Positions 46,896-54,084 of a stretch of 64,000 bases of DNA are shown one piece after another. This stretch comes from a virus. Position 1 is the stretch's first letter, and every line of letters begins with the position of its first letter. The stretch spans positions 86,921 to 150,920 of the IMG/VR virus record IMGVR_UViG_3300046167_000873; one strand, given 5' to 3'. The notes beneath the pieces are model-generated. The model did not search any database. It was not told where the DNA came from and saw only the letters and a program-made list of their open reading frames with translations. Position numbers and translations under genes: made by a program.

Positions 46896-47407
46896 TACTT
46901 CATCATCTTAGATTGAAGTAGTCGTCGGCCACCGACTTCAATATAATTTCTTGTCAGTACCTGCGTCTTTCTTTTCTTTTTAATTCCTGGCTCACCATCA
47001 GGACCAACACCGATACCAGCAACCTGACCTGATCCCGCTGTATTCACTGGCGCTTCTTCTATAATCATTTGAGCTTCATCCATATACTTGTTCAATGTTT
47101 CTTCTAAGTAATCAAGATCATCTGCGTCAATGTTCTCTTCTCTTATAAGCAACAATGCTGCAGCAAATGAAGCAAGTCTTGTTTTGCCCGCAGGTAATTT
47201 ACCTAAAAGCTTTTTAAGGTTAGCAACTAAACGATCAAAGTATCCCCAAGATTTATCTTGATCAATACTCCTATTTTGTTTTGATACAATAACCTTTCCA
47301 TCTTTATCAATGACACCAGACTTATATGCATCCCATTTTTCAAAAGGCGTAACCAGTCTCCGAAGAAAACTGTATATTAATCCTATGTCTATTGCGCCCT
47401 TTGCCAT
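46895..47407 (-). CDS. Conserved T4-like hypothetical (probable virion) protein
   Basis: FLRRLVTPFEKWDAYKSGVIDKDG, RLVANLKKLL, ASFAAALLLIRE, then an EEAPVN..G..AG module. Confidence 0.75.
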   Translation of the reverse strand: MAKGAIDIGLIYSFLRRLVTPFEKWDAYKSGVIDKDGKVIVSKQNRSIDQDKSWGYFDRLVANLKKLLGKLPAGKTRLASFAAALLLIREENIDADDLDYLEETLNKYMDEAQMIIEEAPVNTAGSGQVAGIGVGPDGEPGIKKKRKTQVLTRNYIEVGGRRLLQSKMMK

Positions 47408-47796
47408 TATAGTTCCCTTAAAAGTTTTACTATATTAATATCAACTCCAATATCGTTTGATATTATATGGTTGCCTTCAGTTTCAATATGCTGTACTACT
47501 TCTGGCATCTTCGATAAAAACAACAAAAACGTTTTTAGTATCGGCCAATGATGACGGTCAATTTTAAAAAATAACATTCTTGTTGCACCATCATGTTGAA
47601 AAACGTTATATAGAGTAATCAAATGATTTAATATAAGCCTTTCTTTTAAATCATCATTTTTTTGATAACGAGAAAAAAGTCTTTTAAGATACTTAAATCT
47701 TTTTAGATCGTCATAAAACTCTTCAGTGTCATAACAAACGCTTGTATAATTTGCAGCAGCATATAATAAAAAATTAGATTCAGTCAATACCTTCAT
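47407..47796 (-). CDS. Conserved T4-like hypothetical protein
   Basis: NFLLYAA.NY, EFYDDLKRFKYLKRL, ERLILNHLI.LYNVF. Confidence 0.8.
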   Translation of the reverse strand: MKVLTESNFLLYAAANYTSVCYDTEEFYDDLKRFKYLKRLFSRYQKNDDLKERLILNHLITLYNVFQHDGATRMLFFKIDRHHWPILKTFLLFLSKMPEVVQHIETEGNHIISNDIGVDINIVKLLREL

Positions 47797-47807
47797 AACC
47801 TACCTTA

Positions 47808-47845
47808 AAAAAACTCCCGCGTACCAAACTAGGAAGAGGCGGGAG
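47808..47845 (-). terminator. Putative terminator hairpin
   Basis: CTCCCGC...GCGGGAG stem followed by a T tract on the - strand. Confidence 0.55.
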
Positions 47846-47854
47846 CCGTATACA

Positions 47855-48211
47855 TTAACTATCTGGGAATTCAGTATCGTCTGCAGTACCAGCCGGATCT
47901 GCTACTAAAGTAGTCGCAGTATTAGCAAAGTCTACCGCATCGCCAGTAGCAAATGCGTTTTTAGATAGAGCAACAAGTACTTCGTGATGGACTCGACCGG
48001 CACGAAGACCAGTTCCTTCTTCACGAAGAACCCAACCTGTAGGTACGCTGCCTTTTCCATCGCCGCGTGCTGCAGCTGATTCGTCAGTGTCTACTCCAAA
48101 CGTACCGATTGGTGTAGTACCATAGATATCTTGTCCGCTTTCGCCAGTATCACCGTCCGCAATAAACTTAGGTGCATCAGAAAGTTGGTCTCTATTTCCC
48201 CATTGTGACAT
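47855..48211 (-). CDS. Conserved virion structural protein (possible head decoration)
   Basis: MSQWG start, FGVD, GWV, GRVHHEVLVAL, DDTEFPD; GATAAATA late-promoter variant upstream. Confidence 0.65.
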   Translation of the reverse strand: MSQWGNRDQLSDAPKFIADGDTGESGQDIYGTTPIGTFGVDTDESAAARGDGKGSVPTGWVLREEGTGLRAGRVHHEVLVALSKNAFATGDAVDFANTATTLVADPAGTADDTEFPDS

Positions 48212-48250
48212 GGTTTTATCCTCTGAGTGGTTTACTTTTTATTTATCTGA

Positions 48251-49897
48251 TTATTTTTTTCGCATATTGCGAAGCTTCTTAAAATCCTTACTATCAATTT
48301 TGCCATCATCATGAACGTCCAGATGCTTATCTTGCGCTGGCGTTAGAGCTTCGTTCTTTTTAGCTAATTTTTTGGATGCAAGATCAGAGCCGTCTTCACG
48401 CTTTTTAGCTAAGTTTGCATTCTTCTTCATAGCAGGAGTATCATCCGCGAAATCACTTCGACGGCTTGCTGCCATTGAATAACTATTGCGAGCCTTAAGA
48501 GCTTTCTTGTTGGCCTTCTTAATATAAGATTTAAGAGTAGAAGTATCAAGCTCAACTACCTGCTTGACATCTTCGTGAACAGGATTTTCCCGATCAAAGA
48601 CTTTTTGGTCTGCACGATCTTGACCACGTTGTCGTTTAGCCATCTTCTTGTCGTGGTACTTCTTCCCCGCTTCGCCTGGATTATACTTGTCGCCAGCAAC
48701 AGCGTGCTTATCTGCTTCACGACCTGCTTTCTTAGAATAAGACTTAAGAGTAGAAGTATCAAGCTCATCAACCTGCTCGACTTCTTCGTTGTATCTCCTT
48801 TTAGCTCGATCAATACCGCTTTGACGTTTATCGGCTTTGGCGAATCTCTTGTTGCCTTTATCAAATTCCGAGTCGCTCATTTTAGTGTCGCCAAAGCTGG
48901 CTGCTGATTGACTCCTGTCTAAGTGATCCATACCATGTGCCTTGTTCACATTGCGGCTTTTTATTGCCTTGGATAGATAACTCTTAACAGTATTTTTTTT
49001 TAGTTCATTAACTTGCTCGACTTCGTCAGGTTGACTTACTGACTCGTGGTGAGTTTTCATACCAAGGTTCTTTTGGTTGTAACCCATCTTGTTCATATGC
49101 GACTTATATGCTTTGTGCGCTTCACTACCAGATCCACCAAGATGCTTCTTGACAAAATCGCCGTGAAAACCCTTCTTACCACTTGACACCATACCGTTAT
49201 CGTGGTTGTCTGCATCGCTAGTGTGCTGCTTTACTGCGGCAGCAGCTTTGTCGCCATGAACAGATTTAATTTTATTCAGGATCTGGCCAGCTGCTGCTTT
49301 ACCGTAGTTTTGAAAGTGCTTCGCAGCAAGGTGACCTAGATTGTTCTCATCGAGTTGACTCATTTCAGCAAAGTGACTTACTGACTCGTGATGAGTTTGC
49401 ATGCCAAGGTTCTTTTTCGTGTAACCCATCTTGTTCATGTGAGACTTGTACGCTTTATGTGCTTCACTGCCCGACCCGCCAAGATGCTTACTGACGAAAT
49501 CCTTGTGAAAACCCTTCTTGCCTGACGATACCGTGCCGTTATCATGGTTATCGGCATCAGCAGAGTGTTGCTTTACAGCAGCAGCAGCGGAAGCACCATG
49601 AACAGATTTGATTCGGTTCAGAGTCTGAGCAGCTGCTTGTGATGCTCGCTCTGGATTACGGTGACCTGACTCTGAGTTTGAGTTACTGTAGTGCTGGAAG
49701 TGCTTTGCAGCGAGGTGACCAAGATTGGACTCTTCAATTTGACTCATCTCGTCAAGATAGATGCTGTACGCTTCTTTGACAGACATTTTTTTCTTTTCAT
49801 CTGCTTTAGAAGCATGAACTGCTTTTCGTTGAGCATCTGATACATAACCCTCACGATTTAAAATTCGATCAATAAGATCTCTTGTTATATCTCTCAT
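48251..49897 (-). CDS. Putative capsid-internal polyprotein (basic modules separated by acidic linkers)
   Basis: Duplicated His-rich module, three ExVxQVxE linkers, EF-hand-like final module. Confidence 0.7.
   Translation of the reverse strand: MRDITRDLIDRILNREGYVSDAQRKAVHASKADEKKKMSVKEAYSIYLDEMSQIEESNLGHLAAKHFQHYSNSNSESGHRNPERASQAAAQTLNRIKSVHGASAAAAVKQHSADADNHDNGTVSSGKKGFHKDFVSKHLGGSGSEAHKAYKSHMNKMGYTKKNLGMQTHHESVSHFAEMSQLDENNLGHLAAKHFQNYGKAAAGQILNKIKSVHGDKAAAAVKQHTSDADNHDNGMVSSGKKGFHGDFVKKHLGGSGSEAHKAYKSHMNKMGYNQKNLGMKTHHESVSQPDEVEQVNELKKNTVKSYLSKAIKSRNVNKAHGMDHLDRSQSAASFGDTKMSDSEFDKGNKRFAKADKRQSGIDRAKRRYNEEVEQVDELDTSTLKSYSKKAGREADKHAVAGDKYNPGEAGKKYHDKKMAKRQRGQDRADQKVFDRENPVHEDVKQVVELDTSTLKSYIKKANKKALKARNSYSMAASRRSDFADDTPAMKKNANLAKKREDGSDLASKKLAKKNEALTPAQDKHLDVHDDGKIDSKDFKKLRNMRKK
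49033..49747 (-). repeat. Tandem intragenic duplication of a 110-125 aa module
   Basis: Copies about 49375-49747 and 49033-49363 share NLGHLAAKHFQ..IKSVHG..HLGGSGSEAHKAYKSHMNKMGY..THHESVS. Confidence 0.9.
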
Positions 49898-49909
49898 TGT
49901 TTATTCCCC

Positions 49910-50830
49910 TTATTTTAATAATTCTGGCATGTGTTTTTTAAATACTTTAAGAACATCTTTATCTGCATCTTTTGATTTTAAGAATGCTCTTAAATCCCTA
50001 GTGTCGTTATCTGCGGATTGATTTAAAAGAAACGCAGCCATTTCACCAGAAGATGATTTTATTTTCTTGAGTTCGTTTTCTACTTTACCTTTCTTTGCGA
50101 TCCGCATTTTCAAAGACGCTTCGTTTATCTTCGCAATAAGGCCGTCGACTTCTTCACGAGCGAGTTTCTTATTTGCTAACTCAATTCCCTTGCGTCTCTT
50201 CGCAGCACGAGCTTTGAATGTGTTTTTAATCCAAGCGTGCTGAGGCTCAGGGTAGTGAGATGCATTGGTCTCGCCAGCTTTAGCAGAAAGCTCTGACTTT
50301 TTCTTATAAGACTGTAAAGTAGATTTATCCAACTCATCAACCTGTTCGACGTCTTCTTTTCTATAAGGATAATCCGAAAGTTTACCAGTAGCACCAACTT
50401 TTGTTTTACCAGCTAATTTTTTATCTGCAAGATCGTGGCCTTTTTCACGGCGCTTTTGAATCTCAGTTGCACCCGCTGCTTTAGCATCACGGTGATGAAG
50501 TGCTGCTTGATCTTGGTATCGTTGGATTGTCTTTTTAGTCAGCTCATTAATTTGTTTTAACTCTTCAAGTGATCTCTGCTTTTTCCTATCGTATGAGCCT
50601 TTACCTTTTTTTGGTTTCATGGCGCCAGGTTTACGACCAGAAAGAATATCGCTTAACCTCTTTCTAGCAGATTTTTTATTCATATCTGCTTCTTTAATTT
50701 CCTTATCGCTCATTTTATCTTGTCCTGGAGTTTTATTTTTAAAATCTTTTACGCCTTCGGGTTCACCCCATTTGTGCAAAGGGCCGTCTGGATCTTTTTT
50801 ATTCGGCACCTGACTCACCGTTTTGATCAA
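49910..50830 (-). CDS. Putative capsid-internal polyprotein
   Basis: Lys-rich modules separated by EELKQINE, EDVEQVDE and EEVDGLIAKINE; start codon uncertain. Confidence 0.65.
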   Translation of the reverse strand: MIKTVSQVPNKKDPDGPLHKWGEPEGVKDFKNKTPGQDKMSDKEIKEADMNKKSARKRLSDILSGRKPGAMKPKKGKGSYDRKKQRSLEELKQINELTKKTIQRYQDQAALHHRDAKAAGATEIQKRREKGHDLADKKLAGKTKVGATGKLSDYPYRKEDVEQVDELDKSTLQSYKKKSELSAKAGETNASHYPEPQHAWIKNTFKARAAKRRKGIELANKKLAREEVDGLIAKINEASLKMRIAKKGKVENELKKIKSSSGEMAAFLLNQSADNDTRDLRAFLKSKDADKDVLKVFKKHMPELLK

Positions 50831-51011
50831 AGGTTACCGCAGGTTGTACCGGTTCAATAGTTGGTACTTCATTTTCTTTTGCTCTAGCATAAGCTGTTGC
50901 AGGATTAAATTGTGCCTCAGCGTTTTGCTGGTAAAGATCTTGATTCTTTTGAACGACATCTAAAACAGAAGCCATCAAATTAGCATTTTGTTTTGTACTT
51001 TTAATATCCAT
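50799..51011 (-). CDS. Hypothetical late protein
   Basis: AGGAG RBS and AATAAATA late-promoter variant upstream. Confidence 0.65.
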   Translation of the reverse strand: MDIKSTKQNANLMASVLDVVQKNQDLYQQNAEAQFNPATAYARAKENEVPTIEPVQPAVTFDQNGESGAE

Positions 51012-51041
51012 TGTGATAACTCCTATTGTGTCTGTTATTTA

Positions 51042-52661
51042 TTAAGCTAAATCTTTATCGTGGTTTAAACCACCTTTCTTCTTCTTCGTAATAAAGGCGT
51101 TTACGCGCGCATGTCCCCATTGTTGTGGAGTAGTACCAGGACGATGGCCTGTTTTCCATGCTGCAACACCACGGTTATAAACCTTTTTTAAAGTAGCTAC
51201 AGAAATACCAGACTTCTTTGACTTTTCAGCAAAACTATTTTCTTGTATAACTTCTTCTTTATTGAGTTTTTTATTTCTTGCATCACGTTCTTTCTTTAAC
51301 AACGCTGCAACTGCGCTCATTTTCTGACGATCAGCAGATGTAGGTTGATTTGCTTTAGATGCACGATAGTCAGCAAAGTTAGTTCCTTCATCAGCTTGCT
51401 CGACTTCTTCAGAGAAACCAAAGACCTTGTCTACCTTCTTCTTACCATACTTGGCACGTAAGATTTCAGAGACAGCACCTTCTTTATCATAACCCTTGAC
51501 ATCGTCACCTCTGTTTACAAGAGCAACTTTATTACGGAGTTGTTTGATAGGCATCTTCTTCAGTTCTTGATATTCTTTATACATCGGTGAAGACTTATCA
51601 ATCTTGCCTTCATCAACCTGCTCGACTTCTTCACCCTGCCACTCTGGTTCTTGTTTCTGTCTATTTTTCTGCAAATAATCATGATCTGCTTTAGTCCATT
51701 TTCCAGAACTAGACTTCTTACCAACTTCTTTCTTTACTTCCGGTTTTTTAGCCTGCTCGAGCGACTCTGGAACACAGTTAGGAACTTGCTTATCACCTTT
51801 CTTCTTCATGCCTTGTTGCTTATACCCTTTCCAACAAGTCTTTTCATCCATCATATTGTCAACAAATTTAGTAAATCTTGATTTCTTCATTGGCTTTTCT
51901 CTCGCTTCTTTATCTCCAGGTGCATCTTTATACGCTGATGGATTATCATCGCTCTTTGGACCGTGCTTCTTGAAGTGTGCATCTCGCTTTGCTTTTGTTG
52001 TTTTCTTTAAACCTTTGTGATATGCAGCGGGTTGGGTGCCCTCTCTATCTTTAATATCAGGATCTTGTGCTGACTTTTCTTCGGAGAACTCAACACCAGT
52101 TGCATGAGGCTTCAGATCTTTATGCAGTCTATCAGCATGTGCTTTACTCTTTGCTTTAAAGATTACACCCTTATCAGTAGAACCACCATACTTAATATGA
52201 CCAGCCTTTTCATGTTTCTTCATCACATCATTAGCTTTCTTTTGACGAGAATCACCATCGAGGTGATCAAGGCGTACATGAATCTCTGACTCAGTCATAG
52301 CGTTCTTGATTCGGGTATCTCTTCGACGTGCTTGATCCATCATGCGGTCATGCTTTTCTTTATCGGCTTGTTTTTCTCGCTGAATCTTTTCTCTCGCCAT
52401 CTTAGCATTGACACTTTCTTTTTGAAGTAACTCGTAAGCAACCTTTGCATCAATTGGCAAGCTATACTTGTCAACAATCTTTGAAACACGAAAAACCTTA
52501 GTTGCGCCGAGATTTTCTACTGTCTTTAATTTCTTTTTAATAAAATCAAGTGCTTTTTTATACTTCTTTCTATGAACTGTTTTTGCTCCAATAACTTTCA
52601 TCATTGACGCTGCTTCATCAACGCACTCACCTTCGTCTAAAAACTGACCAAACCTTTTCAT
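51042..52661 (-). CDS. Putative capsid-internal polyprotein with CTS-like N-terminus and DUF5824-like C-terminal module
   Basis: MKRFGQFLDE; CWKGYKQQGMKKKGDKQVPNCVPE; two EEVEQxDE linkers; KSGIS..LKKVYNRGVAAWKTGHRPGTTPQQWGHARVN. Confidence 0.75.
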   Translation of the reverse strand: MKRFGQFLDEGECVDEAASMMKVIGAKTVHRKKYKKALDFIKKKLKTVENLGATKVFRVSKIVDKYSLPIDAKVAYELLQKESVNAKMAREKIQREKQADKEKHDRMMDQARRRDTRIKNAMTESEIHVRLDHLDGDSRQKKANDVMKKHEKAGHIKYGGSTDKGVIFKAKSKAHADRLHKDLKPHATGVEFSEEKSAQDPDIKDREGTQPAAYHKGLKKTTKAKRDAHFKKHGPKSDDNPSAYKDAPGDKEAREKPMKKSRFTKFVDNMMDEKTCWKGYKQQGMKKKGDKQVPNCVPESLEQAKKPEVKKEVGKKSSSGKWTKADHDYLQKNRQKQEPEWQGEEVEQVDEGKIDKSSPMYKEYQELKKMPIKQLRNKVALVNRGDDVKGYDKEGAVSEILRAKYGKKKVDKVFGFSEEVEQADEGTNFADYRASKANQPTSADRQKMSAVAALLKKERDARNKKLNKEEVIQENSFAEKSKKSGISVATLKKVYNRGVAAWKTGHRPGTTPQQWGHARVNAFITKKKKGGLNHDKDLA

Positions 52662-53251
52662 TTTTTATCTCCAGATTTACCAATTAAACCTAAAACTTTT
52701 CTTTTGTTTTGAACAGTTAAACTATTAAAGTCTTGTTTCCAAGATTTTACATCACGAGAAGAAACTTGAGCAGCGTTACCAGCAGCAACACCAAGAACAA
52801 TTGCACCAATAAGCGCCATTTTTGCCAACTTGCCTTCTTCTAATGAATTGTTGCCTTCATATGCAATAAATGGTGTCTTTGATTGAAAGTTCTTTTTTCT
52901 CATAATCGTTTTTGCTTTAACAGCAATCATCTCTTTACCAGATCTATCTCTTTCAGGTTTAATCACTGCTGGTATATTAATCTTAGACTTCTTATCTTTT
53001 AATACAGCTTCAGAACCCTTTTTTGCTTTAATCTTTTTACCTTGTTGACCATCTATTTTATCGATGATTGAAGAAATCTCATCAGCAGAAATATCTGGCT
53101 TATTTCTAGGATCATTAATCCTGTCCCTAAAATGATTGCCTTTAATATCAAGATCAATCTTATGCTTCTTTAATTTTAAGTCGGCTTTTTTCTGCAATGC
53201 ATTCAACTCAGAATTTGAAACGTCTTCTTTAAATTGACTAAATGATTTCAT
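52658..53251 (-). CDS. Putative capsid-internal protein with CTS-like N-terminus
   Basis: Likely start MKSFSQFKE at 53251; HFRDRINDPRN..KTIMRKKNF module, then a second module after SLEE. Confidence 0.7.
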   Translation of the reverse strand: MKSFSQFKEDVSNSELNALQKKADLKLKKHKIDLDIKGNHFRDRINDPRNKPDISADEISSIIDKIDGQQGKKIKAKKGSEAVLKDKKSKINIPAVIKPERDRSGKEMIAVKAKTIMRKKNFQSKTPFIAYEGNNSLEEGKLAKMALIGAIVLGVAAGNAAQVSSRDVKSWKQDFNSLTVQNKRKVLGLIGKSGDKK

Positions 53252-53253
53252 CG

Positions 53254-54084
53254 TTAACAGTTCCAACGCTTTAATGACATTGCCTTCCTTGTCGGACGAC
53301 CTTTCTCGTCTTTCATAGGACCTTTCATTCCGCCCATTCGAGCACAAAATGATTTACGGCGCTTAGCAGCTTTACCGTCTGGATCGAGCTTACTTGGTGG
53401 AGTAGTTACAGCAGTTTTAACGCCAGCTGCCTTTGCACCTTTACGCGTCAAGCCAGCACCATCCTCGGTTGGTCGCCTATGACCTTTGGCATCATCACCA
53501 CGCTTATTTGGTTTGTCATCTTCGGTGATTGCGAGTTCAGTGTTGATAGCATCAAACGTTTCTTGAGCTGACATAGTATTGCGATATTCTAAAAATGCTT
53601 CCTTTAAATCTTCGTAGCATACATTGTACTTTTCGCTTTTCCTACGCAGATTCTTTTCAATCTTTTCGGTAATGATCTTCTTATATTCAGTTTCATAGAA
53701 ACCATAAACGACATTCATGATGTCATAGTTTTCACGACGAGTTTTTCTTGCTTGACTTAGCCTGCTCATTTCAGCTTTTCGTACTTTAGGAAGTAAGCGT
53801 TTAGCAAGACGAGCAATAACGGCTTTCTTATTAGATAATTTCTTATCAACCTGAGCTCGTTGTGAAAAGCCTAATTTTTTATAGTCTTGGCCGATCTTTC
53901 CTGCTAGTTTACCACGCAAAATTTGACGAGCTTGTTTTTGTGCCCGATTCTTTAGCTTTTTCTGGTCAGCCATTTTAAACTTTGCTTTCTTTCTTCCAAT
54001 TCTCAGTTTGCCCTTGATTCTTTTGGCAACCTGTCTTTTCTTCATTCTTTGCTGTAAATTTAGCACTTCATTGATATTAGACAT
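53254..54084 (-). CDS. Highly basic putative prohead-core/internal protein with DUF6321-like C-terminal module
   Basis: INE then an Arg/Lys-rich domain (LQQRMKKR..KLKNRAQKQAR); after AITE, GAGLTRKG..RRKSFCARMGG..SLKRWNC. Confidence 0.7.
   Translation of the reverse strand: MSNINEVLNLQQRMKKRQVAKRIKGKLRIGRKKAKFKMADQKKLKNRAQKQARQILRGKLAGKIGQDYKKLGFSQRAQVDKKLSNKKAVIARLAKRLLPKVRKAEMSRLSQARKTRRENYDIMNVVYGFYETEYKKIITEKIEKNLRRKSEKYNVCYEDLKEAFLEYRNTMSAQETFDAINTELAITEDDKPNKRGDDAKGHRRPTEDGAGLTRKGAKAAGVKTAVTTPPSKLDPDGKAAKRRKSFCARMGGMKGPMKDEKGRPTRKAMSLKRWNC

Follow-up and report, generated by a model that had tools for sequence, protein, structure and literature searches.

The window analysed here is a stretch of 64,000 nucleotides (nt) that covers bases 86921-150920 of the 150,920-bp IMG/VR virus record IMGVR_UViG_3300046167_000873 and has a G+C content of about 0.37. 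On its minus strand, three adjacent genes encode the proteins P0001, P0002 and P0003, which are rich in lysine (14-19% Lys) and strongly basic (isoelectric point (pI) 9.6-9.9). One acidic linker of eight residues, with the consensus (K/N)-EEVEQVDE, joins small basic modules in all three proteins, and its DNA recurs as a 23-mer. The comparisons below support the linkers as apparent preferred joints of module exchange that trade sequence with each other and, less certainly, point to them as putative cutting sites of the head protease. The three genes are as follows.

48251 to 49897, minus strand: P0001, 548 amino acids, pI 9.6, 14% Lys, three linkers.
49910 to 50830, minus strand: P0002, 306 amino acids, pI 9.9, 19% Lys, one full and one degenerate linker.
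51042 to 52661, minus strand: P0003, 539 amino acids, pI 9.7, two linkers, N-terminus MKRFGQFLDE, C-terminal DUF5824.

Six copies of the 23-mer were located in these open reading frames (ORFs), all of them in frame and on the minus strand. They are given below with a degenerate seventh linker and a linker remnant; L numbers are viral contigs compared with the window.

51610 to 51632, minus strand: linker EEVEQVD(E), 23/23 to the reference 23-mer, in P0003.
51388 to 51410, minus strand: linker EEVEQAD(E), 21/23, in P0003.
51234 to 51257, minus strand: linker remnant EEVIQE, which precedes the DUF5824 module and aligns with EEVEQINE of the L122 orthologue.
50543 to 50566, minus strand: degenerate seventh linker EELKQINE, 15/23, in P0002, followed by LTKKTIQRY.
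50334 to 50356, minus strand: linker EDVEQVD(E), 21/23, in P0002, followed by LDKSTLQSY.
49005 to 49027, minus strand: linker DEVEQVN(E), 20/23, in P0001, a homology end versus L122/L204/L205 and versus L206.
48765 to 48787, minus strand: linker EEVEQVD(E), 23/23, in P0001, the right end of the L206 match.
48552 to 48574, minus strand: linker EDVKQVV(E), 19/23, in P0001, where near-perfect identity to L122 stops after the first four bases, GAAG.

No further copy of the 23-mer was found in the rest of the 150.9-kb genome, and 100 shuffles gave 0 matches by chance. The first-pass annotation had described six copies in three genes, two of them identical and 2.8 kb apart (48765 and 51610) and the other four matching at 19-21 of 23 positions. 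All of this was reproduced, with a spacing of 2845 nt between the identical copies and 21, 21, 20 and 19 matches in the others, and so were its codon counts (GTC in all six copies, GAG and CAG in four each, despite the AT-rich genome). Its statement that the sequences between copies are mostly unrelated stands for the identical copies 48765 and 51610, whose flanks are unrelated right up to the 23-mer. It does not stand for all copies, because a related module start, L-x-x-(S/N/K)-T-(L/V)-x-S-Y, follows four of the six, and copies 48552 and 48765 with the following module start have 64 nt in common at 88% identity.

The codons chosen in the linkers were compared with the codon usage of the genome, in which GTC accounts for 13.5% of Val codons, GAG for 24% of Glu codons and CAG for 27% of Gln codons. 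The chance of finding GTC in six of six copies is 0.135^6, about 6e-6. Among the six copies, 62 of the 88 codon pairs encoding the same residue were identical, versus 48.0 expected in simulations with genome usage (P = 0.027); with the usage of the three genes themselves, P was 0.008. The rise in total codon identity is only modest, since GAA and GAT are preferred codons in any case. It is the sharing of rare codons that gives the strong signal.

Viral contigs were also scanned for any DNA encoding EEVEQVDE, which is unbiased at synonymous sites, and at least 137 copies were found on at least 119 contigs. Among the matches listed, nearly all copies lie within ORFs, usually after Lys or Asn and with very diverse sequence downstream; 87 of the 119 contigs carry other genes (T4-like backbone) in common with the window phage, and 18 have gp21 nearby. 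These results indicate that the linker motif is a trait of marine T4-like phages. In the 123 listed copies with a unique context, codons 1-7 were all skewed to GAA GAA GTC GAG CAG GTT GAT relative to each locus's own usage (z = 5.2, 5.6, 6.6, 7.9, 5.9, 5.7 and 3.5), and no skew was observed at the third base of codon 8 (z = -1.7). Therefore, the conserved DNA is exactly the 23-mer. Synonymous identity thus exceeds what codon usage predicts, for the rare codons in the window and for all seven codons across the family. The T-L-x-S-Y start after the linker was taken as a control, for which only 15 copies were available, too few to inform.

The same data bear on whether the peptide alone is the signal. 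In that case the protease or the assembly would need EEVEQVDE, illegitimate recombination could take place anywhere, selection would keep the linker-joined products, and the likeness of the DNA would come from codon context and ancestry. Codon context does give part of the bias, since Glu before Glu is GAA in 86% and Glu before Gln is GAG in 40%, and the modest rise of total codon identity in the window also suits this explanation. However, Val before Glu is GTC in 12.7%, versus 38-44% seen in linkers, and Gln before Val is CAG in 37%, versus 63-67% seen in linkers, so that neighbouring-codon context accounts for only part of the linker skew. A peptide signal also does not predict a skew that covers seven codons and spares the eighth. 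Moreover, the excess codon sharing in the linkers (0.62 versus 0.49) is roughly double the excess seen for conserved orthologous motifs of these gene families. Together with the exchange of linker DNA within genomes described below, these data make a signal in the peptide alone unlikely.

A nucleotide-level function other than recombination, in the messenger RNA or the DNA, for example a translational pause for module folding or a binding site, was considered as well. It would fit the central codons GTC, GAG and CAG, which are the rarer ones in these A+T-rich genomes, and the presence of the skew in all four G+C strata, where GTC was weak at G+C 0.37-0.40 (0.16 versus 0.13 expected). In contrast, codons 1, 2, 6 and 7 are skewed to common codons and not to rare ones, and such a function would leave both the private variants within genomes and the breakpoints at the linker (see below) unexplained. 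We consider it improbable. Two specific candidates of a similar kind were tried and rejected. A common RNA fold of the six copies was not observed, as z ranged from -0.7 to +0.7 for five of the six and the structures differ. Avoidance of off-frame stops as the cause of GTC was discarded because the preferred GTT-GAT at codons 6-7 makes an off-frame TGA.

The repeats might also simply be young, if linker-plus-module cassettes were duplicated a few times in the recent past of this lineage and the process then stopped. The 64 nt in common between copies 48552 and 48765 and the following module start would agree with this, and so would an internal tandem duplication of 342 nt in P0001 (49005-49295 and 49347-49637, with 291 nt aligned at 77%). 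The unit of this duplication has its borders at L-D-E, F-A-E and the linker V-N-E, which indicates that older duplications also respect hydrophobic-x-Glu sites. However, the identical copies 48765 and 51610 have unrelated flanks up to the 23-mer, and the same consensus occurs in at least 119 diverse contigs with unrelated modules. Recent duplication as the whole explanation is therefore very improbable.

The first-pass annotation had taken the conservation at synonymous sites as a sign of recent copying or recombination, and the comparison of copies within genomes agrees with it. Copies from the same genome match at 5.47 of 7 synonymous sites, versus 4.52 for G+C-matched copies elsewhere (15 loci with at least two exact-peptide copies, the window and its close relative excluded; one-sided Wilcoxon p = 0.004). 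With the window included, p was 0.0013. Rare variants private to one genome are common to copies with unrelated flanks, such as GTG, which the two L023 copies both have at codon 6, and this is not expected from a peptide-only signal. A more direct case was found in the contigs L204 and L205, which are 99.7% identical over 6.76 kb. A single linker accounts for six of the 19 differences between them, namely three substitutions and a 3-nt indel, and about 2.5 kb around this linker contain no other difference. The L204 version of the linker has 18 nt identical to three other linkers on the same contig, whereas the L205 version has no donor there. This difference looks like a short conversion patch from another linker, and it too speaks against a signal in the peptide alone. 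Homogenisation within genomes and the linker-confined patch indicate that linker DNA is copied between sites.

Outside the linkers, L204 and L205 also differ at L204:2190-2214, which has the same coordinates in L205 and where ten substitutions, all synonymous, lie within 25 nt at the N-terminus (MKKIVISFGRMNP) of a nucleotidyltransferase-like ORF. This cluster resembles another short conversion patch, with a diverged homologue as its source.

If the linkers are joints of module exchange, homology between related genomes is expected to end at them, as the first-pass annotation had proposed. Megablast was used to collect matches between different contigs that span 200 nt or more with an identity of 85% or higher, and the internal ends of these matches were clustered. 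In linker-bearing ORFs, 19 of the 77 homology ends lie inside the linker 23-mer, versus 2.8% for random positions within the same ORFs (binomial p = 3e-13), which is about nine times chance; each breakpoint is visible from both partners, so the independent events number about half of the 19, a reservation against the count that leaves the enrichment standing. Ends within 5 nt of a linker made up 31%, versus 4% expected. The position of the breakpoint varies within the linker, from its 5' edge to its 3' tail. The alignments show single modules of 200-250 nt with 86-97% identity, bounded by linkers and with unrelated sequence beyond. In L013, a mosaic, two adjacent modules are closest to two different contigs and the partner switches inside the linker. 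An earlier global blastp test, in which the ends of high-scoring segment pairs were compared with strict linkers, gave an enrichment of about 2-fold; it was noisy from repeated module starts and degenerate linkers and was replaced by the high-identity DNA test.

The copies 49005, 48765 and 48552 of the window are themselves such ends. The closest relative (L122, the same as L127; L204/L205 from metagenomes) has a 441-nt segment with 89.6% identity to the window from 49011 to 48571. On the left this segment stops in the tail of copy 49005; on the right, a stretch with 54 of 55 bases identical runs out four bases into copy 48552. In the relative, this segment sits in the gene with the P0002 N-terminus, which indicates that modules moved between genes. 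The match to L206 (263 nt, 90.5%, window 49027 to 48765) covers precisely one module and the linker at each of its ends, and the modules beyond are unrelated on either side. In P0003, the 84% DNA match to L122 that covers DUF5824 has its start within the remnant linker, at 51242. The L122 orthologue lacks the modules that copies 51610 and 51388 flank and has other linker-bounded modules in their place. At the middle linker, identity to L122 is 86% and 93% on the two sides, which is suggestive only. The point at which L204 and L205 part is precisely GAAG|AAGTC, where a linker begins in L204. From there L204 runs on into the second copy of a 771-nt in-frame block, which occurs twice at L204:6005-7534, 99.87% identical and joined via a full EEVEQVDE linker, and the contig ends where the second copy ends. 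The doubling could reflect a tandem duplication, a permuted order of the modules, the junction of a circle or, since it lies at the contig end, an assembly loop.

The orthologues of P0003 (L124-L203) carry their modules in differing orders and fusions across contigs. The reordered modules are a nucleotidyltransferase-like module, QDPDIKDREGTQP, CW.GYK..GMKKKG..VP.CV, HVRLDHLDGD and DUF5824, and the order of the HVRLDHLDG and QDPDIKDREGT modules is swapped in L193 relative to the window. Many orthologues begin with (M)IKNFSQYLVEEE ahead of the nucleotidyltransferase-like domain.

Besides the double view of each breakpoint, several points weigh against the proposed role of the linkers. P0003 orthologues also reorder modules at M-D-E or V-x-E junctions without the 24-mer, so the full linker is not required for shuffling, and a peptide-only signal would account for such bare hydrophobic-x-Glu junctions. 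A selection filter that keeps modules and cut sites intact would likewise put breakpoints at linkers. At the right breakpoint of the window, L122 has only GAAG and a V-N-E site and not the full linker. Among the contig pairs, no module was found cleanly deleted between two linkers, and the indels lie elsewhere. The repeat at the contig end of L204 could be an assembly loop or cycle. All of these contigs are metagenome assemblies, in which chimeric joins at a 24-nt repeat are unlikely with the usual k-mer sizes. No late promoter TATAAATA was found directly upstream of the three genes. DNA homology, rather than selection alone, may place the module junctions.

A target of a site-specific recombinase, as in a shufflon, would also present a short conserved repeat bordering exchangeable coding segments. 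In the R64 shufflon, sfx repeats are acted on by a dedicated recombinase, Rci, and site-specific inversion takes place between inverted repeats. The R64 repeats resemble the linkers in delimiting in-frame exchangeable segments. In contrast, the linker copies all lie on one strand as direct repeats, which leaves no possibility of inversion. No match to a recombinase or integrase family was found among the 20 neighbouring ORFs scanned with PHROGs, and the position of the breakpoints varies within the linker. A shufflon-like explanation is close to refuted.

The genome context identifies the phage and the enzymes that could act on the linkers. Among the genes of the record are those for a gp21-type prohead protease (PF03420, 129 bits, genome 48555-49007), the gp23 major capsid protein (473 bits) and a UvsX-like protein of the RecA family, and genes for NrdA/NrdB and a gp61-like primase adjoin the linker-bearing genes. 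At the protein level, the isolates closest to it are Phage C48C1 (Kyanoviridae), Pelagibacter phage HTVC008M and the Methylophilales Melnitz phages. From the gp21, gp23, UvsX-like and NrdA/NrdB genes and the nearest isolates, the source is an uncultured marine T4-like myophage. The cultured C48C1, HTVC008M and Melnitz have modules in common with the window phage, but the full linker was not found in the single C48C1 locus examined. A near-identity DNA search with window 47000-53000 against phage isolates gave no match, and a query of 34 residues comprising the linker and a module gave only a weak match to S-SKS1.

T4 gp21 cleaves at the motif L/I-X-E, and the T4 capsid-targeting sequence has 10 residues, of which positions 4 and 7 serve targeting and positions 8 and 10 processing (PMC9026906). 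The linkers end in V-D-E, V-N-E, V-V-E or A-D-E, with a hydrophobic P3 and Glu at P1 as in sites of the gp21 type (MEROPS S77); with Val or Ala at P3, they follow the T4 rule only in a relaxed form. The N-terminus MKRFGQFLDE of P0003 and the internal MKSFSQFKED of P0004, a neighbouring ORF without a full linker, resemble the T4 targeting peptide, whereas P0001 and P0002 show no such likeness at their annotated starts. The linkers divide the proteins into pieces of 70-351 residues, mostly 70-140, with a pI of 9.5-10.4. The only Pfam match above the curated cut-off is DUF5824 at the C-terminus of P0003 (PF19141, E = 5.6e-18). Because the V-D-E ends fit the gp21 rule, the phage has a protease of this type and P0003 and P0004 have targeting-like starts, P0001-P0003 are most likely head-cargo polyproteins that would be cut after the final Glu of each linker. 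The linker is a less certain candidate as a protease site than as a recombination joint.

Two further ORFs outside the window, both on the minus strand, are weakly linker-like: a gp22-like scaffold (genome 47283-48350), which begins with EVTDQVDVEVVE, and a core-protein-like ORF with KKEVDEA (genome 50015-50755). Their weak likeness would fit shared protease recognition. The capsid-targeting-like starts and the neighbouring ORF are placed as follows.

53227 to 53256, minus strand: capsid-targeting-like start of P0004.
52658 to 53347, minus strand: P0004, with the internal Met start MKSFSQFKED.
52632 to 52661, minus strand: capsid-targeting-like start of P0003.

No relatives of P0002 were found among the viral contigs. 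The region upstream of its first ATG (window 50689-50797, minus strand; DPDGPLHKWGEPEGV.D.KNKTPGQ) is matched at 82% DNA identity in L122, and L195 has a peptide like it. Because it is conserved, this region is probably coding from a TTG start, or a small conserved leader module.

In bacteria, polymorphic toxins carry short motifs, VENN in CdiA and PxxxxDPxGL in Rhs, that mark the borders of exchangeable C-terminal modules, and the coding DNA of these motifs is thought to provide homology for swapping. These systems have one border per protein and a linked immunity gene. Their motifs are, like the linker, short peptides at a module border, but the linker belongs to a phage system with many borders per protein. 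The T4 proteins IPI-III and Alt (PMC9026906) are close to P0001-P0003 in being basic and variable and in occurring in a T4-like phage with a protease of the gp21 family. The N-terminus of P0003 is like their 10-residue targeting peptide, and the linker ends in hydrophobic-x-Glu. They differ in having one leader per protein, whereas here several modules appear in one chain, separated by an extended, conserved acidic linker of eight residues at which cleavage is predicted.

PeSL cassettes of T4-type phages are known for modular gene shuffling and mini-circles (PMC2839356, PMC4122927). They are likewise short repeats of T4-type genomes where insertions, deletions and replacements begin or end, with recombination between dispersed short homologies, and the coincidence of end points with the repeat that marks them was also observed for the linker (19/77 versus 2.8%). 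However, PeSLs are intergenic promoter-plus-terminator cassettes, with a sigma-70-like early promoter and a stem-loop, and they move whole genes. The linker is coding and in frame within ORFs, has neither a promoter nor a common hairpin, and would move protein modules. In the T-even tail-fibre adhesins gp37/gp38, as described in PMC3157838 (citing Tetart 1996, 1998), exchanges occur at conserved glycine-rich motifs or His boxes. Those motifs form the structural core of a single folded domain, whereas the linker joins unrelated modules, is a probable protease site and is conserved at synonymous sites. None of the T4 internal proteins, PeSLs and gp38 motifs combines a repeated cleavage-type linker between modules with synonymous-site conservation. 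A full-text literature search for the linker motif gave 0 matches.

Taken together, the linker of the basic modules is probably both a cleavage site of head cargo and a portable homology for in-frame module exchange. The gp21-type protease would cut after the final Glu of each linker, while the linker DNA would serve as a short homology whose copies are homogenised by gene conversion or crossover. Since every copy is read in the same phase, any crossover inside the linker is in frame. A crossover between copies 51610 and 48765, for example, would remove 2845 nt and yield an in-frame fusion of P0003 residues 1-351 with P0001 residues 379-548. Such crossovers could move whole modules between positions, genes and co-infecting phages, probably through the UvsX-type recombination system that the phage itself encodes, with the short homology as its substrate.

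A bolder and rather doubtful extension, conceivable all the same, is that the linker is a dual-coded element, which the protein would use as a protease site and which would be maintained in the DNA as a 23-nt recombination signal. Marine T4-like phages would thereby share a population-wide library of small capsid-delivered effector modules, reassorted in frame, possibly via excised linker-to-linker circles like the PeSL mini-circles. If true, this would be an analogue of exon shuffling in a prokaryotic virus. If the main reading holds, one short sequence would free many small proteins from one packaged chain and also keep crossovers in frame and functional. That reading would extend the idea of T4-type recombination cassettes from whole genes to protein modules, and it would be a rare clear case of selection or molecular drive on synonymous sites of a phage. 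The linker can also be used as a search handle, since one degenerate pattern found at least 119 contigs, and the modules could be catalogued with it. If true, module exchange at the linkers would explain the rapid diversification of injected or head-internal proteins in uncultured marine T4-like phages.

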